Shown in pieces: positions 8,178-20,281 of a stretch of 64,000 nucleotides of DNA. Source of the DNA: Escherichia coli (GTDB lineage: Bacteria > Pseudomonadota > Gammaproteobacteria > Enterobacterales > Enterobacteriaceae). The notes under the pieces are model-generated. The model had not been told where the DNA came from. It did not search any database and worked only from the letters and a program-made list of their open reading frames with translations. Within the stretch, counting starts at the first letter, position 1. Every line of letters begins with the position of its first letter. The position numbers were made by a program, and so were the translations under genes. The stretch lies in the NCBI RefSeq assembly GCF_003334815.1, contig NZ_QOWO01000021.1; one strand, 5' to 3'.

Positions 8178-11100
8178 ATGGACTTATTTGACCTGTTAAC
8201 AATTAAATTTACCTTGCCCGCGAAAGCTGCCCCTGTAAGAAAAGTGGGTGGGAATTATGTTCATAAATTACTTTGCCGATCAACAACAGTATTGGCTCAA
8301 GTCAGAAATGCACGTTTCCAAGGATATTTTGAACTTGTTACGGGTCTAAAGCCCCCTCTGGACTATGTCTATCTGAAAGATCCAAATTCCAGGGGTAAAT
8401 GCGCAGATGGTGTAGCTTCCCTTAAAGCTAAGGAACCATTTACATTCGAAAAATGGCGAGAAGATACTGAGTTAAGCTGGGAGCAATTTCCAGAGCAGGT
8501 AATTAGCACTTCACCTAATGAAATTAATGAACAATGGCATCATCAATTTCAGTTTAGAGAGGACGATCCAGAGCGCAATTCTCCCGGTCTCAGAAAACCC
8601 CAACTGGGTGCACTTCATGCAATTGCAGGCTATTTCGCCACTGATTTGCAGGTAGAACCTGCTACCGTCGTACTGCCCACTGGAACGGGAAAAACGGAAA
8701 CAATGCTGGCTACCATGATATACCAGCGATGCGAGCGAATTTTGCTCATAGTCCCATCTGACTCTCTCCGAACACAGATATCCAAAAAGTTCATCGATTT
8801 AGGATATTTGCCAGAGCTAACAGTCGTTCCACCCAACATTGCACTTCCTAATGTCGCCATTATTAAGAAAGGAATTCAGGTAGCGGAAGAAGCTAAGCAA
8901 TTAGCTTGTGAATCAAACGTCTTGGTTGCTACGACCAGCGTTTTGTCTGCCTGCTCCGAAACAGCATTAAATGCACTTTGCGAGTTGTGTAGCCATCTTT
9001 TTGTTGATGAGGCTCATCATATCTCAGCCTCATCATGGCAGACAATTCGCAAACGATTTAAAAACAAACGTGTAGTGCAGTTTACAGCTACCCCTTTTAG
9101 GAATGATAAAAAGTCCCTTGGTGGGAAAATTATCTATAACTACACGATGGGGGAAGCCCAACGAGCAGGCTATTTTACAAATGTAAATTTGCTGCCTGTA
9201 GAAGAGTATTACTCTGACCTTATGGATCACGCAATCGCAGATAAAGCTGTTGGCCAACTGCGTATAGACTTAAATAATGGCCTTGATCATTTGCTTATGG
9301 CCCGTACTAGCAATAAGCAGCGAGCAGAAGAAATACTGACTATTTATCAGAATATTGTACCGAACTTTAATCCAATCGTTATTCATTCTGATTATCCTAA
9401 AACGGAAATAAAAAAACGTCTTAATAAATTATTATCAAGACAATCAAGAATCGTTATTTGCGTAGACATGTTGGGAGAAGGCTATGACCTACCCAACCTG
9501 AAAATTGCCGCTTTGCATGATCACCATAAGTCTCTTGCAGTAACTTTGCAGTTTATTGGCCGTTTTACTCGTGTCAATAAAGCACAGAAAATTGGTCAAG
9601 CTAGTGTAGTCATGAATGTTGCAGACCCTAATGTTGAAGGTGAATTACAGCATCTATATTCAACAGATGCCGATTGGGATAACGTATTAAGGCGACTCTC
9701 TGAAGGACGAATTGCTAGAGAGATTAGGTTGCAAGAGGTCGTGGATGCCTTAAAAAGGAAAGGTGATTTACACGATCAGATCTCTCTCTGGAACCTTGAG
9801 CCAAGTTGTTCTGTCATGTTATTTAAAACATACTGTGACAATTGGGAGCCTGAAAGATACAAGGAAAAACTGCCTAGATTCGATGAATCATGGCATGCAA
9901 TAGCAGAAGATGAGAATTTGCTTGTTGTGCTAGCTGTCCAGACAACTTCAGTCCGGTGGGGAAACTACAAAGATCTTAAAGATACCAATTATAAAATTCT
10001 AATTGCTCATTGGGATCAAAGCAGATCCGCCTTGTTTGTATTCTCAAATGACTATAAAGCATTCCGGGTTGAGAATCTGGTTAGTACTATTTGTGATGAT
10101 AAATTTGAAATTGTCAGTGGTGAAAAAGTTTTTAATGTATTTAATGGTATTGAATATCCTTTAGCAAGAAATTTAGGCGCATCCCAAATTGGAGCAATAA
10201 GCTTTACTCAATATTTTGGCCCAAATGTCACTGAGGGGCTATCACTAATTGAAGCGTCTCAATCAAGCTTAAGCAATATTGCTGCATTAGGTTATGAATC
10301 CGGAAACCGTGTAATCTGGGGATGCTCGCAACGCAGAGGTAAGGTCTGGTCACCACAAAAAGGGGGTAGCATTGCTGATTGGTGCAACTGGGTTAAGAAA
10401 ACTTGGGACAAAATCTTTAGTTCTGAACCAGATCCAAACAACCTTACGCGTAACTTTTTGCGTCCTGTCCCATTACTCGAACCCTATAATGAATATCCAA
10501 TATCAGCTCAATGGGGTGAGTATTTGCTTACTACGTTCGAAGATAAAGTTATTTTTCATTTTGATGCTATATCAGCTCACTTATATTTAGTAGATGTGAA
10601 GACTGCTGGAAAGTTTGACGATGGCAATGTGCGGCTCATTTTTTCTACAGATGAAACTTCATCTGAATATAAATTATGTCTTACAGGTAGTACTACAGCA
10701 AAAGGTTATGCCTATCAGTTGATTTCTGGCCCTGAAGTCTTTGTACAGCGAGGTGAATCTGAACCTGTATCACTATCAGAATATATGGAAATTGATCCAG
10801 TAATGATTCATTACTCCGATGGCTCATTTTCTTACAACGCTCATATAGTTCATGTAAGCCCAAATATTGGCCTTTATGACAAAGACGAAATTGTAGCTTT
10901 TGATTGGAATGGAACTGATGTTCGACTGGAATCAATGGGCTATACTCGTGATCCATCATCCATCCAGTGGCGTTGGTACAGTGAAATTAAAGATAATTAC
11001 GATGTTATTATTAATGACGACGGTAAAGGTGAGTCAGCTGATTTAGTTGGGTTAAGAATAGTTGATGACTGTATTGTTCTCTCTTTAATTCATTGCAAGT

Positions 11101-11459
11101 ATTCAGGCTCAGAAGAAGCTGGAGCAAGACTTAAAGATCTTTACGAAGTATGTGGGCAGGCACAGAGATGCATTCGTTGGAAGCACCTGAATCTTTCCTA
11201 TTTATACCACCACATTAAGCGGCGCGAGGAACAGTGGCGATCGCTTGGTCATTCTCGCTTTCTAAAAGGCACTATAAAAGACCTTGCAGCTATGAAAGAG
11301 CGCTCCAGAATCACACCTCTTAAATTCCAAGTTGTTATTGTTCAACCAGGACTTAGAGTAAACAAAATTAATGAAGAAGGCCTTAAGTTACTTGGCAGTA
11401 CGGCCTTATTTATCAAGAAAACAACGATGGCAGACTTAGTTGTTATTGGTTCTAAATAG
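8178..11459 (+). CDS. SF2 helicase, DEAH/ResIII-type, with ~600-aa C-terminal region of unknown function (1093 aa)
   Basis: Motif I LPTGTGKT, motif II FVDEAHH, motif III FTATP, motif VI QFIGRFTR; RBS agagg 8 bp upstream of ATG; visibly AT-rich; possible nuclease-like signature ...DDGKGESADLVGLRIVDD...LIHCKYSG near the C-terminus. Confidence 0.8.
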   Translation: MDLFDLLTIKFTLPAKAAPVRKVGGNYVHKLLCRSTTVLAQVRNARFQGYFELVTGLKPPLDYVYLKDPNSRGKCADGVASLKAKEPFTFEKWREDTELSWEQFPEQVISTSPNEINEQWHHQFQFREDDPERNSPGLRKPQLGALHAIAGYFATDLQVEPATVVLPTGTGKTETMLATMIYQRCERILLIVPSDSLRTQISKKFIDLGYLPELTVVPPNIALPNVAIIKKGIQVAEEAKQLACESNVLVATTSVLSACSETALNALCELCSHLFVDEAHHISASSWQTIRKRFKNKRVVQFTATPFRNDKKSLGGKIIYNYTMGEAQRAGYFTNVNLLPVEEYYSDLMDHAIADKAVGQLRIDLNNGLDHLLMARTSNKQRAEEILTIYQNIVPNFNPIVIHSDYPKTEIKKRLNKLLSRQSRIVICVDMLGEGYDLPNLKIAALHDHHKSLAVTLQFIGRFTRVNKAQKIGQASVVMNVADPNVEGELQHLYSTDADWDNVLRRLSEGRIAREIRLQEVVDALKRKGDLHDQISLWNLEPSCSVMLFKTYCDNWEPERYKEKLPRFDESWHAIAEDENLLVVLAVQTTSVRWGNYKDLKDTNYKILIAHWDQSRSALFVFSNDYKAFRVENLVSTICDDKFEIVSGEKVFNVFNGIEYPLARNLGASQIGAISFTQYFGPNVTEGLSLIEASQSSLSNIAALGYESGNRVIWGCSQRRGKVWSPQKGGSIADWCNWVKKTWDKIFSSEPDPNNLTRNFLRPVPLLEPYNEYPISAQWGEYLLTTFEDKVIFHFDAISAHLYLVDVKTAGKFDDGNVRLIFSTDETSSEYKLCLTGSTTAKGYAYQLISGPEVFVQRGESEPVSLSEYMEIDPVMIHYSDGSFSYNAHIVHVSPNIGLYDKDEIVAFDWNGTDVRLESMGYTRDPSSIQWRWYSEIKDNYDVIINDDGKGESADLVGLRIVDDCIVLSLIHCKYSGSEEAGARLKDLYEVCGQAQRCIRWKHLNLSYLYHHIKRREEQWRSLGHSRFLKGTIKDLAAMKERSRITPLKFQVVIVQPGLRVNKINEEGLKLLGSTALFIKKTTMADLVVIGSK

Positions 11460-11554
11460 GACGAAAAATTGATAATATTCGATTTTAGTAATATTAAATA
11501 ACGAATTGAATATGCTATAAAAATGATGGAAAAAGCAAGAAAAGAGAGTAAATT

Positions 11555-12877
11555 ATGATCCTATTCTTTTATCCCTACATAATGCTTTGCTATAGCGCTG
11601 GATACGCTTTATTGCAAACACTGGATGGGATGGGTGTGATTAGTACCAACTTTGTAGAAATGAACGCACAGGGTGCTCTTTTGAGCAGTTACTGGTCTCC
11701 CAATAAAGTTGCTGTAGTCTTAGGAGGATGTTTTCTTGAGCTCTTTATTTTATTATTACCTTTTGTTTTCTTGAGCTCATGGATACTTGCCAGAAAAAAG
11801 GGACTCATCATTTGTTTTGTTCTTCTTATAACCCCTGGCCTATTATCGCTCTGTCACCTTCTTCCTGCTATCCAGTGGTTGCCATTGACCTATGAAATAG
11901 GAGGTACAGGTGCAACAGGTAACGCAGCTGGACTCGGAAGTCTTAGCTTCATAGGGCTATTGAGTGGTTGGATTTTGGCAGTAATCATTAGTGATATTTT
12001 TGCTACAGGAGAGAAATTCAGACAGTGGACAGATATTTTCCTAATACTGACAGCAGTTGGAAACGGTCTTTTCTGGGTATCAGACAGAGAGGTGGCTGTC
12101 GGTAAAACCGCATATGAGAAAACAATTACGGATATTAATGATGCAGCCAAATACCTTCTTTTTCAGGTGAAAGACTACAGCCGCATGTGTGACAATAACG
12201 GGCTTACCGAAATGTCATCTTGTCAGTGGGCATCGTACATTCAAGAAACGCTAGAAAATATTGCCAGTACAAAATCATCTGTTATTGAATATGTAATACC
12301 TGAAAATCTTGACACCTTCTACCGAATTCCTGAGTACTATAGCAATCAAGTATCTCCAGATAAAATCAGACAGGAATTTCAAGACTTCAATAAAAAACTA
12401 TGCCCAAATAAATCTCTTTCCAAAACAATAACACAATTGCCATCACCTTCTCGATGGTGCCAGACCCCACCCCCAGCTTACTGCAATGCCATTCAAGAGG
12501 GAAAATATAAAACAGGCATGTCAGACCGTTTCGCTGTCGCCAATGAGTGTGTAACTACATCATTATTAAGGTACCGCCAAGTTTTATTAAAAGAACAAGC
12601 TCGTTTATCCTTAAGTAAAAATGCCCCTCATTATAGATGGATGTGGTTTATTGCTATGTCTTTTTTTATTGGAGGGAAAATTGCCAATGTAATGACAAAA
12701 ATAGGTAATGTAGAGAATCGTCTCATAACTGAGAAACATAGAGTTAAATTCATCCTTCTAAAAACATGTGGTTTTATTGTGCGTACATTAATAAGATGTG
12801 CCATCTTATTTCGGAAAGTGTTTTTTTCAACGATCAATTATATCAAAAGATTGAAGAAAATAAAGCATGATACTTAA
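11555..12877 (+). CDS. Polytopic membrane protein of unknown function (440 aa), co-oriented with the helicase
   Basis: Starts 95 bp after the helicase stop with its own RBS; N-terminal ~180 aa form about five hydrophobic helices, then a Cys-containing soluble region, one more helix and a basic tail; AT-rich like the helicase. Confidence 0.6.
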   Translation: MILFFYPYIMLCYSAGYALLQTLDGMGVISTNFVEMNAQGALLSSYWSPNKVAVVLGGCFLELFILLLPFVFLSSWILARKKGLIICFVLLITPGLLSLCHLLPAIQWLPLTYEIGGTGATGNAAGLGSLSFIGLLSGWILAVIISDIFATGEKFRQWTDIFLILTAVGNGLFWVSDREVAVGKTAYEKTITDINDAAKYLLFQVKDYSRMCDNNGLTEMSSCQWASYIQETLENIASTKSSVIEYVIPENLDTFYRIPEYYSNQVSPDKIRQEFQDFNKKLCPNKSLSKTITQLPSPSRWCQTPPPAYCNAIQEGKYKTGMSDRFAVANECVTTSLLRYRQVLLKEQARLSLSKNAPHYRWMWFIAMSFFIGGKIANVMTKIGNVENRLITEKHRVKFILLKTCGFIVRTLIRCAILFRKVFFSTINYIKRLKKIKHDT

Positions 12878-12936
12878 ATAGAATAGTGACAAACACTCAA
12901 TTGCAAGGTCATTCTTTGTGTTGAATGAATAAAGAA

Positions 12937-12970
12937 CAAGGGGTACTTTCTCCTGTACCCTTGGAGTTTA
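12937..12970 (+). terminator. Candidate intrinsic terminator after the helicase/membrane cassette
   Basis: Inverted repeat caaggggtac...gtacccttgg followed by a T-rich stretch. Confidence 0.35.
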
Positions 12971-13395
12971 TATTAGATAATACATCTGAATCTACTCTGG
13001 TGATTCACACTAGCGGCAATAGTGTTTTGTACTCAACCGTTTATACAATAGCATCCATGACTAATTGAGCGTAGAGTTCAGTAAGCTTATTAATTATCCA
13101 CTTATTGAAAGAATTCGTGGAACGCTCTTACCGATAAAATCAGTGAATGTATTGCTCTTGGTGATAATGCCATTGGGAAAAATTACCAACCAGCCATCCC
13201 ATTAAGGCTAGCCGATTAACTTTAATTGAATCGCCACGGATTTGGCAAACAATTCACATGTCTCTACTACGCTTGATTTTTTCGTAGTATAACAGCGTAA
13301 CCCTTTTTCTCCCGGTTTACATACAAGAAACCTGTTCATCATTGCTGATGAAGATATATGCTGCCCTTACACGATAATTGTTTAGGATAGTAACA

Positions 13396-14361
13396 ATGCC
13401 TTTAGATTTAAGTAACACTTTAGTGATTGGCATCAGCGCGACTGCGCTTTTTGATATGAGTGAATCCGATCGCATGTTTTGCGAAACCTATGCGACCGAT
13501 CCTGATAGCGCCATTGAAAAATACCGCGCCTATATGCTGGAGCACGAAAACCAACCTTTACAGCCCGGAACAGGCTACCCTTTAGTCAAAGCGTTGCTGG
13601 GTCTGAACCAGTACCGTCAACCGGATGATAAATCACCGTTGGTTGAAGTCGTTGTGATGTCACGTAACAGCCCTGATACAGGTATCCGCGTTCTGAATAC
13701 TATTCGCCATGACAGGCTCGATATCACGCGCTCTGCCTTTACAGCAGGCGAAACTGTTGCTGATTACCTTGATGCCTTTGATGTGGATCTGTTTTTAACA
13801 ACTAACGTTGAAGATGCGCAAAAGGTGATTGATTCCCGATTCTGCGCCGCTGCAATCCTGAAAGATCCGCCTTCTGACGCATCTGATATCCCGGAAGGGC
13901 AAGTGCGCATTGCTTTTGACGGCGACGCGGTACTTTTTTCCGATCAAAGCGAACTGGTTTATAAGACCCAAGGAATGGTTGCCTTTCATGCTCAGGAAGA
14001 CGCGCAGCAGGATATCCCTATGGAAGAGGGGCCTTATGCCACTTTGCTAAAAAAAATAGCCAAGCTTCAGGAACGATTGCCGACCCGCGTTGAGTATTCT
14101 CCTGTTCGTATTGCATTGGTGACAGCCCGAAATAGCCCTTCGGAAATGCGCGTTATTAAAACGCTAAGAAGCTGGGGGGTATATGTCGATGAAGCTTTTT
14201 TTCTTGGCGGCGTAGAGAAAACAAAAGTTCTGAAGGCATTTAAACCACACATTTTCTTCGACGATCAGGATGTGCATTTAAATACAGCTGCAAAGGTTGT
14301 ACCTTCCGGGAAAGTACCTTATGCCAGTAACTCCGAACTGGCAGAGCGTGAAGCATCGTAA
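13396..14361 (+). CDS. HAD-superfamily phosphatase, 5-prime-nucleotidase-like (~321 aa)
   Basis: HAD motif I FDGDAVLF, motif II LVTARNSP, motif III/IV K...FFDDQD; ATG at 13396 with agga upstream (listed ORF starts at TTG 13378). Confidence 0.5.
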   Translation: MPLDLSNTLVIGISATALFDMSESDRMFCETYATDPDSAIEKYRAYMLEHENQPLQPGTGYPLVKALLGLNQYRQPDDKSPLVEVVVMSRNSPDTGIRVLNTIRHDRLDITRSAFTAGETVADYLDAFDVDLFLTTNVEDAQKVIDSRFCAAAILKDPPSDASDIPEGQVRIAFDGDAVLFSDQSELVYKTQGMVAFHAQEDAQQDIPMEEGPYATLLKKIAKLQERLPTRVEYSPVRIALVTARNSPSEMRVIKTLRSWGVYVDEAFFLGGVEKTKVLKAFKPHIFFDDQDVHLNTAAKVVPSGKVPYASNSELAEREAS

Positions 14362-14552
14362 TTATCGCTGATAAACCATTTAGTCATTAAGGCTGGATGG
14401 TTTGTATACCACACGCAAAATAACGGCCCTACCCCAGATCAATGCTCGCCTCTGAACACCTCTTTCCTGTGCCATTCCACAAACTGTTCGCCCGGATAAT
14501 TTTCTTTAACCGGTGGCAACGCAATCGCTTTTCCCGCAAAATCCCAGAACAG

Positions 14553-15359
14553 TCACTGTACCACTCCACCATCATTTACCGCACCGGAAACTACCACACG
14601 CATATTTTCATCCAGGTCAATCGAACCGCGATCAAACGCTTTATGATGGATTGCGCACAATGCCAGGCCATTAGGTACTTCACAAGGGCCATGGTGCTGT
14701 TTCCATCTGATATGAGCAGCTTCCAGAGCAATCGGCGCATTGTCGTGGCGCATGTTAAAGCCGCAGATAGCGCACTGATAATTGTAAGCATGTAGCACCA
14801 TCTGGCGAAACTTCGGATCGCGTTGACGAAGAGAGGTGCGAATATCAAAACTCCTCTCGTCAGCTATCTCTTCCTGAATACTGGCCGGGAAATGCGCCTC
14901 CAGGAGCTGCTGCGCCAGCGTATCAATTAACCTGTAATTTTTTTCCACCAACGCAAAATTATCGGCATCAAATCCACCAGCGACATTATATTCAATGAGT
15001 TCACGTCGGGGCGGCTGGCGGCTACCACTGGTTGAGCACAGTTCCGCGTTATGTAGTTCCCAGAAGCCATCGCCCTTCAGACGCCAGAACGGCATGTCCG
15101 GGCGCTGGTCACGGCGCTGCGGTCCATAACGTTCCAGGAGATCCAACAGGGGCTCGTAGATTTCAGAAGCATAGTTAAACAGGCGACCATGACTCTGCCG
15201 ATAGTGTGAGAGAACGTACAGCAGCAATAATGGCTTATGTGGCGCACGTTGTTCACCTTTGCGCCAGATGGTGATATTTGATATCGCTTGCTTTAGGGTT
15301 TTGTCAGAGGTCATTGCGTTGAAGAATCCATGAGCATATGTTTGCGATGATGCTCGCAA
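14553..15359 (-). CDS. HNH-motif endonuclease with N-terminal domain of unknown specificity
   Basis: C-terminal HNH signature CAICGF...EAAHIRWKQHHGP...NGLALCAIHHKAFDRG; start uncertain (M1 or the internal MTSDK...). Confidence 0.7.
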   Translation of the reverse strand: MRASSQTYAHGFFNAMTSDKTLKQAISNITIWRKGEQRAPHKPLLLLYVLSHYRQSHGRLFNYASEIYEPLLDLLERYGPQRRDQRPDMPFWRLKGDGFWELHNAELCSTSGSRQPPRRELIEYNVAGGFDADNFALVEKNYRLIDTLAQQLLEAHFPASIQEEIADERSFDIRTSLRQRDPKFRQMVLHAYNYQCAICGFNMRHDNAPIALEAAHIRWKQHHGPCEVPNGLALCAIHHKAFDRGSIDLDENMRVVVSGAVNDGGVVQ

Positions 15360-15519
15360 CTATATGTATATTCAAGGCATTATTGCAGACATCCTTTTTG
15401 CCTGACGGCTCTGTACCTGGCAGATGGAATTCTGAAAAAAATACAGCGACCAACCAGTCCTAAGCGGTCTGGTTGGTCTTTTAAATTTAAACATCAGCCA
15501 AGGAGTAACGGCATTCAAC

Positions 15520-15750
15520 TCACTCGCCATTACCCCGATTGATCTTCGCATAGTCAAACGGCGTAATCGCTCTTTCCCGATTGGCATCCAGAAAATCGAC
15601 CCACCACTGCAACATCAGCTTACGCTCATCCAGATATTCCGCTTTATGGATTATACGCGGCCTGCACTGAGTTACGTCCATGTGGCTCATCTGACGTTCA
15701 GCCGCTTTATCTCGTGCTGTTTTGGTCTCAATACTTCCATGCCGTTGCAA
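15520..15750 (-). pseudogene. 3-prime remnant of a second P4-type integrase gene
   Basis: C-terminus ...ERQMSHMDV...IHKAEYLDERKLMLQWWVDFLDANRERAITPFDYAKIN aligns with the C-terminus of the intact integrase at 18638-19903; no upstream catalytic region. Confidence 0.6.
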
Positions 15751-15918
15751 TTACCTCTTAAACCATTCCTTACCATTTTCATGTCTTCGATAAGAAATCT
15801 TCATCATGCATGATCGATTTTGTCTATCTATTCGATCGAATTTTTTCTTTTTACCCTGTCTTTTGCATGGTTTTAAAATAAGCAACCTTCTTTATCGGGT
15901 GGGTAAGAACCAACGGAG

Positions 15919-16668
15919 ATGATTGAAATGAAAAAGATTATTGCTGTTTCAGCGCTTGCTATGGTGGGCGTATTTTCAGCCCAGGCTCTGGCTGATGAGA
16001 ACAAAACTGGCTTTTATGTGACCGGTAAAGCAGGTGCTTCTGTTATGTCACTTGCAGACCAGCGTTTCCTGTCGGGTGATGGAGAGGAAACATCAAAATA
16101 TAAAGGCGGTGATGGCCATGATACGGTATTCAGTGGCGGTATCGCGGCCGGTTATGATTTTTACCCGCAGTTCAGTATTCCGGTTCGTACGGAACTGGAG
16201 TTTTACGCTCGTGGAAAAGCTGATTCGAAGTATAACGTAGATAAAGACAGCTGGTTAGGCGGTTACTGGTGTGATGACCTGAAGAATGAGGTGTCAGTCA
16301 ACACACTGATGCTGAATGCGTACTATGACTTCCGGAATGACAGTGCATTCACACCATGGGTATCTGCAGGGATTGGCTACGCCAGAATTCACCAGAAAAC
16401 AACCGGTATCAGTACCTGGGATTATGGGTACGGAAGCAGTGGTCGCGAATCGTTATCACGTTCAGGCTCTGCTGACAACTTCGCATGGAGCCTTGGCGCG
16501 GGTGTCCGCTATGACGTAACCCCGGATATCGCTCTGGACCTCAGCTATCGCTATCTTGATGCAGGTGACAGCAGTGTGAGTTACAAGGATGAGTGGGGCG
16601 ATAAATATAAATCAGAAGTTGATGTTAAAAGTCATGACATCATGCTTGGTGTGACTTATAACTTCTGA
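15919..16668 (+). CDS. Outer-membrane beta-barrel protein (porin-like small OMP)
   Basis: Signal peptide MKKIIAVSALAMVGVFSAQALA, alternating aromatic/hydrophobic pattern, C-terminal ...GVTYNF with terminal Phe. Confidence 0.65.
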   Translation: MIEMKKIIAVSALAMVGVFSAQALADENKTGFYVTGKAGASVMSLADQRFLSGDGEETSKYKGGDGHDTVFSGGIAAGYDFYPQFSIPVRTELEFYARGKADSKYNVDKDSWLGGYWCDDLKNEVSVNTLMLNAYYDFRNDSAFTPWVSAGIGYARIHQKTTGISTWDYGYGSSGRESLSRSGSADNFAWSLGAGVRYDVTPDIALDLSYRYLDAGDSSVSYKDEWGDKYKSEVDVKSHDIMLGVTYNF

Positions 16669-16819
16669 CAAAACTGCTCCTGAAAGATAATAATTACCCA
16701 TCTTCTGTAATTAAACGAAGACTCCCTGCAGTAATTGTACTGCAGGGTTGTTTGTTATCTGTTTCACAGGAGACTTCTGATTTTTATTCTCTTCACAATA
16801 ATGTTGTCGATATACTCCG

Positions 16820-18319
16820 ATGAATATCAGAAAGCTGTTTTATACGGACAATATATCCCGGATTTTATTGTTTTTATTCTTCCCGGGCATGTGTGTAATA
16901 ACCACTGCTGCATGCGGATACACTGAGAAGAATTCCACCGGGAATGTGTTGCTGCTGTTTCTCCTTCTGATTCTTGCACACAGAAATACCCTTACATCCA
17001 TTACAGCTCTGTTATTTCTGTTCTGTTGTGCACTGTATGCACCTGTCGGTATGACGTACGGAAAAATCAACAACAGTTTTATTGTCGCGTTGTTGCAGAC
17101 CACGGCGGATGAGGCTGCGGAGTTTACCGGGATGATTCCTGTTTATCATTTTCTGGTCAGTGCCGCGATTCTGGTGTTCATGGTTATTTTCTGGCGGACA
17201 CACCACCGTGGTCAACGTAACGCGATGGCTCTGTTGTTATTCGTATTATGCTCTGTAAACAGCTGGCCGTTACGGATGGTTAAAGGAACAGTTGTGGGGA
17301 CAACTGACACATTGCGTGAAATGCAGCGTTATGAACAACTGAGTCGGCACGGTGCTGACAGCTGGAAAATCCTGCCGGGAGCACCATTATATGACACGAT
17401 TGTTATTGTTACTGGTGAGAGTGTCCGCAGGGATTATATGTCGGTATATGGTTATCCCGAGCCAACCACACCATGGCTGAATACTGCTCCCGGTTTATTT
17501 ATTGACGGTTATACATCGGCAGCAGCCAGCACCGTGCCTTCCCTGAGCCGGACACTGATTTATGACTATGAGCAGAACCCTGATTCAGGCAACAACGTGG
17601 TGGCGCTGGCAGCAAAAGCAGGATACAGCACATGGTGGATATCCAATCAGGGAAAACTGGGAGAGCATGACACACGCATCTCTGTTATTGCTTCTGATGC
17701 GGACCATACTGTTTTCCTCAAGAAAGGCAGCTTTGCTTCCCGTAAAACGGATGACATGTTGTTGTTACAGGAAACAGAACGTGCGCTGACAGATACATCC
17801 ACTCCGAAGGTGATTTTCCTGCACATGATGGGGTCTCATCCGAACCCGTGTGATCGGCTTCACTCCTGGCAGAATAATTACCTGGAGCAGTATTCCCGAA
17901 AAATTGCCTGTTATCTTGCCAGCATCAGTAAACTGGATAACTTTCTTGGTCAGCTTGATGGTATCCTTCGCCGACACTCACGTCATTTCGCCATGCTTTA
18001 CTTTTCTGACCATGGGCTGTCGGTCAGCGACAGTGCTAATCCTGTTCATCATGATGGTCATGTGCAGGGAGGCTACAGCGTGCCCCTGATTATTACCGCC
18101 AGTGATATAACCTCTCATCAGTCCCTCAGCAGAAAAATCAGTGCCCGTCATTTCACAGGTATTTTTCAGTGGCTGACCGGTATTCGTACCGAAAATATAC
18201 CGCCATTCAATCCACTGACAGACGAAGATAATGAACGCATTATGGTTTTTAACGGAGAGAGGTATGTACAGGAAGACAGTCTGAAACCGCAGCCGCTTAT
18301 TCTTCCGGACCACAAGTAA
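16820..18319 (+). CDS. Phosphoethanolamine transferase-like enzyme (sulfatase superfamily; EptA/OpgE/YhbX-like architecture)
   Basis: N-terminal ~150 aa multi-helix membrane domain followed by a soluble domain with VTGESVRRDY and HMMGSHPNPCDRL motifs. Confidence 0.6.
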   Translation: MNIRKLFYTDNISRILLFLFFPGMCVITTAACGYTEKNSTGNVLLLFLLLILAHRNTLTSITALLFLFCCALYAPVGMTYGKINNSFIVALLQTTADEAAEFTGMIPVYHFLVSAAILVFMVIFWRTHHRGQRNAMALLLFVLCSVNSWPLRMVKGTVVGTTDTLREMQRYEQLSRHGADSWKILPGAPLYDTIVIVTGESVRRDYMSVYGYPEPTTPWLNTAPGLFIDGYTSAAASTVPSLSRTLIYDYEQNPDSGNNVVALAAKAGYSTWWISNQGKLGEHDTRISVIASDADHTVFLKKGSFASRKTDDMLLLQETERALTDTSTPKVIFLHMMGSHPNPCDRLHSWQNNYLEQYSRKIACYLASISKLDNFLGQLDGILRRHSRHFAMLYFSDHGLSVSDSANPVHHDGHVQGGYSVPLIITASDITSHQSLSRKISARHFTGIFQWLTGIRTENIPPFNPLTDEDNERIMVFNGERYVQEDSLKPQPLILPDHK

Positions 18320-18637
18320 TCATATATGGCAAACTGTAATACAGTTGCTTGTACTGAAAAGTATTCTGTATAAAACAGAATCCATATTCATATCAGCACA
18401 AGGGACCACCAAATCCCGGCAGTATTCATTACGTCAGTTATCCCGCATCACTCTGTGAGTGAGTTTTTTTATGAGGTTACTTTTTCATTGAATATAAATA
18501 ATGAATAACCGCAGATTCTGATAATCCTCCTCCAGGGAACAATCAGGTAAACAGTAAATACATCAGTTAATACCATTTTGTCTTTTTAACAAAGAAAATA
18601 TTCATGGAGTAAGTTCCCGGGCATTTGCCCGGGATGA

Positions 18638-19903
18638 TTACTGTTTTAATGGATTATTAATCTTTGCATATTCAAATGGACTGATAAATCTTTCTCTGTT
18701 TGCATCCAGAAAATCGGCCCACCATTGTAGCATCAAGCGGCGTTCTTCCAGATGTTCTGCTTTATGAATGTAAGCAGCACGTACACCGTTACGTTCCTGA
18801 TGGCTCATCTGACGTTCAACAGCATCGCGGGACCACAAACCTGATTCTATTAACGCACTACATGCCATCGCCCGGAACCCATGACCACAGACATCCCGGG
18901 TTGTGTCATACCCCATAACCCTCAGGGCTTTATTTACGGTGTTTTCACTGATTGGTTTACGTGGGTCATGTGCTCCCGTAAAGATCAGACCATTTTCACC
19001 AGCCCATGTCTGAAGTTCTGCCAGTATGGCTACAGCCTGTTTGCTGAGTGGCACAAGATGTGGTGTTCGCATCTTGGATCCCCGGTGTGAGAATTTTACG
19101 CCTGGCAGAGGTTCGCGCTCAGCTGGAATAGTCCACATGGCATTGTCAATATCAATTTCCGACCAGCGGGCGTATCTGAGTTCACTGGAACGAATAAAAA
19201 CCAGTAAATTCAGCATAACTGCCAGTTGGGTGACAGGCTGGCCTTTATAACCGTCAATACGCGACAGAAGTTCAGGCAGGCGTGAAAGATCCAGAGCAGG
19301 GCGGTGCTGGCGTTTTACCGTGGTCAATGCACCAGCCATATCCAGAGCCGGGTTATATCTGATGATGCCAGACTGTACGGCATAACGCATTACAGCAGAT
19401 ATTCTTTGCTGCAGACGACTGGCGATTTCATAAATTTGTTTAGCTTCTGCAGCACGAACAGGGATAAGCAGGTCCGGGGTACTGAGTGTTGTGATATCCC
19501 GGTTGCCGATAAAGGGGAAAACGTGTGTCTCGAGGCTTTTGAGTACTTTATCGCTGTGTGATTGTGCCCATTGTTTATTACTGACATGCCAGCGTCGTGC
19601 AATATGTTCAAAAGAGAGTTGTAAATCAGGGACTACTTTTTTAGCTCTTTTCTGTTCGCAAGGGTCAATCCCCTCCGAAATCAGTTTTCGGGCTTCATCC
19701 CGTTTTGTACGAGCTTCGGAGAGAGATACTTCCGGATACACACCAAGTGCCAGAGTCTTCTCCTTACCCAGAATACGATAACGGAGACGCCAGTAACGGG
19801 AACCATTGGGATGTACCAGCAGGAACATGCCAGCCCCGTCAGTGAGTTTATAAGCCTTGTCAGTGGGCTTTGCAGCCCGGATTTTTGCGTCAGTCAGTGC
19901 CAT
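18638..19903 (-). CDS. int: P4-type tyrosine integrase (421 aa)
   Basis: MALTDAKIRAAKPTDKAYKLTDGAGMFLLVHPNGSRYWRLRYR... is a classic P4-like integrase N-terminus; lies next to the tRNA 3-prime end in the same orientation. Confidence 0.9.
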   Translation of the reverse strand: MALTDAKIRAAKPTDKAYKLTDGAGMFLLVHPNGSRYWRLRYRILGKEKTLALGVYPEVSLSEARTKRDEARKLISEGIDPCEQKRAKKVVPDLQLSFEHIARRWHVSNKQWAQSHSDKVLKSLETHVFPFIGNRDITTLSTPDLLIPVRAAEAKQIYEIASRLQQRISAVMRYAVQSGIIRYNPALDMAGALTTVKRQHRPALDLSRLPELLSRIDGYKGQPVTQLAVMLNLLVFIRSSELRYARWSEIDIDNAMWTIPAEREPLPGVKFSHRGSKMRTPHLVPLSKQAVAILAELQTWAGENGLIFTGAHDPRKPISENTVNKALRVMGYDTTRDVCGHGFRAMACSALIESGLWSRDAVERQMSHQERNGVRAAYIHKAEHLEERRLMLQWWADFLDANRERFISPFEYAKINNPLKQ

Positions 19904-20100
19904 AGTTCAGCCTTCTGAATGAGTTAAAGAGGGTACAAATTCTGTCGAACTGGGGTATACCCGCAATTATACCCACACAATGGGGTTGATGTGGGGGGAA
20001 TCTGGTTGAGTTCGGTAGAATTGATTTGGAGGAAGAACACTTAAATCATGGTGTTCTGAAACGAAAAACGGACCTCCGTGGAGGTCCGTTGATATGAATT

Positions 20101-20176
20101 TGGTGCCCGGACTCGGAATCGAACCAAGGACACGGGGATTTTCAATCCCCTGCTCTACCGACTGAGCTATCCGGGC
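20101..20176 (-). tRNA. pheV: tRNA-Phe (GAA)
   Basis: Reverse complement reads GCCCGGATAGCTCAGTCGGTAGAGCAGGGGATTGAAAATCCCCGTGTCCTTGGTTCGATTCCGAGTCCGGGCACCA. Confidence 0.95.
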
Positions 20177-20281
20177 AACGGGGCGCATTAAACCTGATTC
20201 GCCTCGTCTCGTCAATCAAATTTCTTCAATTTACTGCAGACTGCACAATCTATCATCACTTTGCCGATATTGCACGCATTG

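Follow-up and report, generated by a model that had tools for sequence, protein, structure and literature searches.

How two integrase sequences, one intact and one broken, came to lie in a single pheV island of Escherichia coli is the question raised by this locus, which is part of a 64,000-nt stretch of DNA (hereafter, the window). The original prediction took a short minus-strand open reading frame (ORF) for the C-terminal remnant of a second P4-type integrase, called the island composite, and offered two origins for it: either two islands had accreted in tandem at pheV, or the genes for an outer membrane protein (OMP) and a phosphoethanolamine (PEtN) transferase had replaced most of an older integrase. 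We found that the remnant, here called the stub, is an ordinary pseudogene that is already annotated in RefSeq, and that its seam with the OMP gene is an old inherited junction, not an event local to this genome. The island is indeed composite, with a stub and cargo of leuX type behind a pheV head, and it did not become so by recent tandem accretion at pheV.

The features of the locus are collected in Table 1. To the right of the tRNA-Phe gene are the core genes yqgA and speC, as is also the case in EC556, and they identify this tRNA as pheV. The intact integrase carries the Pfam domains Arm-DNA-bind_3 (residues 3-88), Phage_int_M (98-192) and Phage_integrase (210-383), and is separated from the PEtN-transferase gene by 320 nt that contain no ORF of 40 aa or more. 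In other strains, too, this PEtN-transferase gene is flanked by the integrase gene and the OMP gene, in islands at selC, leuX and pheV. Homologues of the OMP in other genomes are annotated as either 'invasion outer membrane protein Tia' or 'outer membrane protein', and the sole sigma-70-like match in a consensus scan (15850-15879) lies near this gene. On the OMP side, alignment showed that homology with the subAB island (SMBL) and with strain 103 stops near 15771. In EC556, an IS3-family element separates the OMP gene from the PEtN-transferase gene (L001 17791-19019; window 16668-16820); apart from this insertion, EC556 is 100% identical to window 11000-20200.

Table 1. Features of the pheV island head, the seam and the first cargo genes (window coordinates).
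Feature	Position	Strand	Basis or remark
5'-nucleotidase-like gene, second cargo gene	13378..14361	+	PADLOC candidate defense family PDC-S08, E 1.7e-134
Phosphorothioated-DNA-binding HNH restriction endonuclease (PT-REase), first cargo gene	14439..15314	-	NCBIfam PT-DNA_restrict, E 1.9e-114
Native hairpin + T-run	15436..15478	-	40-80 nt past integrase stop codon; kept with stub
Integrase remnant proper	15520..15732	-	Last 70 codons + stop; pseudogene; BLASTP, tblastn, PGAP
Junction-proximal block of stub (…IETKTARDKAAERQMSH)	15682..15749	-	Signature of original truncation
Junction DNA between OMP upstream region and integrase-derived sequence	15733..15771	.	About 35 nt, past OMP-side and protein-level integrase homology
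OMP gene's own upstream region	15772..15918	+	Also present without stub attached
Outer membrane protein, heat-resistant-agglutinin family (Tia/Hek/Hra1/Hes-like)	15919..16668	+	PGAP start 15928
Phosphoethanolamine transferase (YjgX/CptA-like), conserved head module	16820..18319	+	NCBIfam CptA/EptA-family matches; PGAP name
Intact P4-type tyrosine integrase, 421 aa, island head	18638..19903	-	Pfam; NCBIfam PRK09692
tRNA-Phe (pheV)	20101..20176	-	ARAGORN; island attachment site; sole tRNA gene in window

The ORF listing of the window contains a 76-codon minus-strand ORF at 15520-15750. In a pairwise BLASTP comparison, its residues 7-71 gave a gap-free alignment with residues 352-416 of the intact integrase, in which 41 of 65 positions are identical (63%, E 2e-26), and nucleotide alignment revealed clear similarity between the stub and the intact pheV integrase gene over their common 3' end. 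A tblastn search of window 15400-16000 with five intact integrases placed the homology at 15523-15732, up to the stop codon; against the 421-aa leuX-type integrase of KTa005, the stub corresponds to residues 352-421 (74% identity, E 9e-34). Significant homology is confined to this C-terminal stretch, the pattern of an integrase pseudogene. The catalytic region upstream is absent, as had been proposed: the same five integrases gave nothing beyond noise in 15750-16000 at E up to 10, and no Pfam domain was found in the stub, all three being present in the intact gene. Faint nucleotide resemblance upstream of 15750 in the stub alignment was considered as decayed integrase and discounted, as tblastn returned only noise there.

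Tyrosine recombinases rely on the catalytic residues R-K-H-R-H-Y, of which the Tyr is the nucleophile. The stub begins after the HGFR box and therefore lacks a complete catalytic domain, and the arm-type DNA-binding and central domains of a functional P4-type integrase are missing as well. Alignment and tblastn further revealed a +1/-1 indel pair, 26 nt apart, which changes RAAYIHKAE to RPRIIHKAE and removes the catalytic Tyr. Other database copies of the stub (P0002 and P0004) retain this Tyr, indicating that its loss in the window copy is lineage-specific. Judged from its sequence, the stub cannot act as a recombinase, with most of the catalytic domain absent and the Tyr replaced, and the island as a whole, if mobile at all, must rely on the intact integrase for its movement. 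The same sequence occupies the same position in EC556 (QUE77_RS21360), where PGAP describes it as 'integrase; incomplete; partial in the middle of a contig; missing N-terminus', and a protein search found a 76-aa 'integrase [Escherichia coli]' cluster, 96% identical to the stub ORF, on at least 1000 contigs. The PGAP entry is silent on the lineage of the integrase, on the seam across three tRNA loci and on the mosaic 3' half of the stub.

The lineage of the stub was traced by a sensitive BLAST search against 5426 complete E. coli genomes. The best intact matches shared 88-90% nucleotide identity with the stub, over window 15515-15705 only. The three best that were inspected all adjoin tRNA-Leu (leuX), between yjgR/ahr and the island cargo, and each is directly followed by a gene for a PT-REase. 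In pMTY18781-2 the order is leuX integrase, PT-REase and then a 5'-nucleotidase gene, as to the left of the stub in the window. When the stub was aligned with the leuX islands, the similarity was unbroken, beginning in the PT-REase gene, crossing the spacer and the hairpin and extending to the integrase 3' end, and the DNA past the stub's stop codon (hairpin, spacer and PT-REase gene) is collinear with the leuX islands of KTa005 and pMTY18781-2 at 94-96% identity. This collinear flank indicates that the stub is a remnant left in place beside its original downstream neighbors. The unit formed by the PT-REase 5' end, the spacer and the integrase 3' end was seen both behind stubs and behind intact integrases.

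The hairpin past the stop codon is strongly folded (-24.5 kcal/mol, z -4.85, 0 of 200 shuffles as stable), and its sequence is conserved 3' of intact leuX integrases. A simple terminator scan flagged no terminator, this hairpin included, so that the hairpin is confirmed by folding only; no Rfam family matched 15200-16100 at E up to 1. In the PT-REase gene, codon 254 of the 291 is a stop, which PGAP also notes ('internal stop') in EC556, and the gene product is probably inactive as a result. The stub shows, moreover, that the cargo in the window is related to leuX-hotspot islands and not to pheV islands. On pMTY18781-2, the PDC-S08 5'-nucleotidase gene at leuX adjoins Dsr1.

We searched the window for copies of tRNA 3' ends that would mark a second attachment site. 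The 23-mer and 17-mer from the pheV 3' end, with up to three mismatches and no indels, matched nothing in the whole window except the tRNA itself (20101-20123). This agrees with the earlier failure to find a tRNA 3'-end copy by eye in 15750-15920, and the partial pheV repeats that a wider search had been expected to look for did not appear. Since the stub is of leuX type, the 25-mer and 18-mer from the leuX 3' end were searched under the same settings, and neither matched anywhere in the window, beyond which the far end of the island lies. The stub is thus not accompanied by a tRNA att site or repeat of its own, no internal tRNA 3'-end direct repeat separates it from the head, and with no att repeat beyond the tRNA there is no sign of a tandem array. 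Nor are the two integrases both of the lineage that targets this tRNA, the kin of the stub being at leuX and the head integrase at pheV; the 3' half of the stub itself appears to be exchangeable, and the location of its nearest kin need not give the lineage of the original integrase.

Next, we examined how widely the seam is distributed, using a 341-nt query (15620-15960) that joins the 5' part of the stub to the start of the OMP gene, at a coverage of at least 80%. The OMP-stub junction was present in 989 of the 5426 complete E. coli genomes (about 18%), and it was found behind different integrases at three tRNA loci: at tRNA-Phe (pheV) in the window, EC556 and FDA1281, at tRNA-Sec (selC) in strain 219, and at tRNA-Leu (leuX) in BP0078. 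The arrangement in all of these is integrase, (variable genes), PEtN transferase, OMP gene, stub. Behind the stub, strain 219 and BP0078 carry IS1 followed by an antitoxin gene and a type I restriction-modification (RM) system, FDA1281 carries dptFGH-dnd, and Santai carries a type I RM cluster. The head also occurs without a stub, beside subAB in SMBL and beside an H-NS-like gene in strain 103. Because the same seam stands at other tRNA loci and in 18% of complete genomes, it is older than this genome. The proposal that the OMP and PEtN-transferase genes replaced most of an older integrase therefore describes the junction correctly, but fails as a local event, the junction being old and inherited.

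To resolve the structure of the seam, we aligned five stubs with three intact genes and calculated identity per segment. The OMP upstream region fell into two clades, 80% apart, and the junction DNA at 15733-15771 was nearly identical in all five stubs. From the junction block to the ERQMSH codons (73 columns), the stubs were 94-100% identical to one another and 51-58% identical to intact integrases, from which they also differ by a common 5-nt deletion; in BLAST searches, matches of intact E. coli integrases to the stub stop before this block. The integrase 3' end after the block (146 columns) formed three classes that share 63-76% identity. The window and Santai make up the first (94% to each other, 88-91% to the KTa005 leuX type), strain 219 and BP0078 the second (identical to each other, 87% to the window's intact pheV-type integrase), and FDA1281 alone, with an 11-nt deletion in its stub, the third. 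The DNA past the stop codon differs by class. The database stub proteins are likewise mosaic, with a leuX-type tail in P0002, a pheV-type tail in P0004 and a common N-terminal 'QRHGSIETRTARDKAAERQMS'.

Across islands at three tRNA loci, identity is thus markedly higher in the block at 15682-15771 (94-100%) than in its flanks (63-80%). This uniformity probably arises from the lack of an alternative allele available for recombination; selection on the block could be another cause of uniformity beside divergent flanks. A progenitor, that is, an intact integrase with the junction-block sequence, was not found among E. coli genomes, where BLAST matches to intact genes end before the block, and a protein search returned short fragments only. 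A 20-mer from the block had no exact match in GTDB species-representative genomes, a weak negative given exact matching and one genome per species. Nor did these searches turn up a tandem arrangement with an internal att as progenitor. In E03, an IS3-family element (end TGAACCGCCCCGGG…) cuts the stub at window 15709 in a papGII-carrying pheV island (L006 ~7946-8001), and in many ExPEC genomes, CFT073 and APEC O1 among them, what is left of the block amounts to just 58-70 nt or about 270 nt.

From these comparisons, we consider it probable that the stub is a non-functional relic, produced by a single truncation long ago and later reshaped by homologous exchange within the part of the integrase 3' end that had survived. 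The starting point would have been an integrase-led island of the leuX-hotspot kind, from which the att site and roughly the first 351 integrase codons were lost, and the break would have been joined to the upstream region of a Tia/Hek/Hra-family OMP gene in a head module of the form tRNA, integrase, PEtN transferase, OMP. This fusion appears to have been single and ancient, with the seam then inherited and spread among pheV, selC and leuX islands. The stub retains ~190 bp of the integrase 3' end, which would still be similar enough to intact integrase genes to recombine with them, and the mosaic pattern suggests that such exchange repeatedly swapped the 3' half of the stub together with the downstream cargo. 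The role of the stub would be passive, that of a homology patch and not of an enzyme. In the window, the exchanged part may have come from a leuX-type island carrying genes for PT-dependent restriction and the PDC-S08 5'-nucleotidase. The single origin and the exchange steps rest on the five aligned stubs and the database fragments, in which the sharing of the junction can be seen directly and the exchange is read from the mosaic pattern. The dptFGH genes, the cargo of the FDA1281 class, also lie at leuX in SE11. There, the integrase is cut to an N-terminal 36-codon fragment beside dptFGH (L012 3982-4089), the opposite type of remnant, which shows that integrase decay at such hotspots is common.

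Other histories would lead to a similar arrangement. A second island could have integrated recently into the resident att at pheV, and a local deletion could later have eliminated the att between the islands along with the bulk of the first integrase. Composite islands are known to arise through tandem arrays at tRNA sites, and such an event would explain two integrase sequences of the same orientation 3 kb apart downstream of pheV. It would leave unexplained, however, why no internal pheV repeat exists even at three mismatches, why the stub, its collinear flank and its cargo are of leuX type, and why an identical seam that predates this genome follows the integrases at selC and leuX and recurs in 18% of the complete genomes. 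Tandem accretion, one of the two origins first put forward, is largely refuted for this genome, and we regard it as very improbable. Hardly more probable is that a site-specific or hotspot-driven process truncated integrases recurrently and independently at a preferred site near the ERQMSH codons, each being fused to the OMP gene, so that the 3' classes would represent separate events. The 3' halves of the stubs do come from at least three integrase lineages, and SE11 demonstrates that internal deletions of leuX integrases occur. Yet all five stubs share the same ~70-nt block (94-100%) with its 5-nt deletion, at 51-58% identity to every intact integrase compared, and independent events would not reproduce one block that is unlike the intact integrases.

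The uniformity of the block, against 80% between clades in the OMP upstream region and 63-76% between classes in the integrase 3' half, would also fit a function kept by selection, either as a distal regulatory region of the divergent OMP gene or as a small protein encoded by the 76-aa ORF. All 76 codons are open in the window, and the nearly identical 76-aa protein is widespread. Stubs of several lineages nevertheless carry frameshifts or deletions (PGAP notes; the 11-nt deletion in FDA1281), IS elements sever the stub while the OMP gene is kept (E03 and the shorter seam matches), and OMP genes without any stub exist (SMBL and strain 103). The block, moreover, contains no Rfam match and no promoter-like site, and we judge a selected function to be very improbable. 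That the similarity arose by chance, or that the fragment is the C-terminus of a different intact gene, can be practically dismissed. Only the short length of the match speaks for chance, against pairwise E values of 2e-26 and 9e-34 and an alignment that reaches the stop codon and carries on into the DNA that lies 3' of intact integrase genes; upstream of codon 352, there is no in-frame similarity to integrases or to any other family. A single old truncation followed by exchange remains the reading that we prefer.

We then compared the island with known ones. The LAA island at pheV has been described as a mosaic of four modules (PMC5539235, 2017). Relative to its Supplementary Table 3, the window contains the head of LAA module I, with pheV, a P4-type integrase (421 aa), a 'sulfatase' that is a homologue of the PEtN transferase, and an Hra-family OMP gene (hes in LAA). 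LAA has sisA between the integrase and transferase genes, whereas the window has only the 320-nt spacer there and no sisA. After hes, LAA has atoS; a stub could fit into a gap of 379 nt, for which the published table gives no ORF. The cargo likewise differs, consisting of defense genes in the window and of modules II-IV (iha, lesP, pagC-like, ag43) in LAA. In the window, which ends before the far end of the island, sisA, atoS and modules II-IV are all lacking, and we rejected an assignment to LAA on the absence of sisA and atoS.

The subtilase-encoding island (subAB-tia) and pap pheV islands share a head of the form pheV, int, (variable), PEtN transferase, Tia-like OMP. In these examples the stub is gone, its place being taken by subAB-side DNA, or it is cut by an IS3-family element at window 15709. 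E. coli K-12 has an adjoining integrase and PEtN-transferase homologue, about 89% identical to window 17133-18958, with no OMP gene or stub among the matches and with the region interrupted by IS2; we take this pair to be the KpLE2 element at leuX (intB - IS2 - yjgX …). Both the closest intact kin of the stub and the cargo downstream of stubs (PT-dependent restriction in the window, dptFGH/dnd and type I RM behind others) are typical of E. coli defense hotspot #37, at leuX, where they adjoin the 3' end of a tRNA-site integrase, and the cargo side of the window corresponds to 'integrase-only' defense islands (Hochhauser, Millman & Sorek 2023, PMC10121019; reviewed in PMC12707154). At leuX an intact integrase directly precedes the cargo, whereas the cargo in the window is located at pheV and is preceded by a truncated integrase and by a head of the virulence type. 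A literature search on truncated integrases in pheV pathogenicity islands found nothing.

Since the integrases of tRNA islands keep a conserved last ~190 bp, the integrase 3' end, in a stub or in an intact gene, might serve as a portable homology 'dock', which recombines with an incoming integrase gene from another locus and takes up its defense cargo without site-specific integration. We put this forward tentatively, leaning slightly against it. The way in which 'integrase-only' defense islands are mobilized has been reported as unclear (PMC10121019). If the 'dock' were real, it would provide a concrete route for the turnover of such islands and would explain why leuX-hotspot cargo stands behind virulence-type heads at pheV and selC. 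More generally, if exchange through the stub holds, simple homologous recombination would be a route for the fast turnover of E. coli defense islands. That tRNA-site islands are mosaic is itself textbook material, and for this window the stub is of little importance, a dead gene flagged by annotation pipelines. As a landmark, it marks the exact boundary between a conserved virulence-type head (integrase, PEtN transferase, Tia/Hek-like adhesin) and variable defense cargo.

Further from the seam, the plus strand encodes a 1093-aa DEAD/DEAH helicase (8178-11459), with weak PbeA and type I/IV REase-like matches only, and beside it a 440-aa protein (11555-12877), probably membrane-bound, with no NCBIfam or PADLOC match. 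Both genes have a low GC content (35-41%), and together they may form an uncharacterized defense pair. Set against the EC556 annotation, the region from ~1 to 8110 contains orphan fragments of CdiA-CT toxins, accompanied by the immunity gene cdiI (4950-5315), as well as an IS200/IS605 tnpA (5494-5952), symE at about 6074-6313 on the minus strand, and two type I RM fragments, an HsdR C-terminus (6563-7303) and an HsdM N-terminus (7367-8110). This region looks like a graveyard of defense and competition modules.
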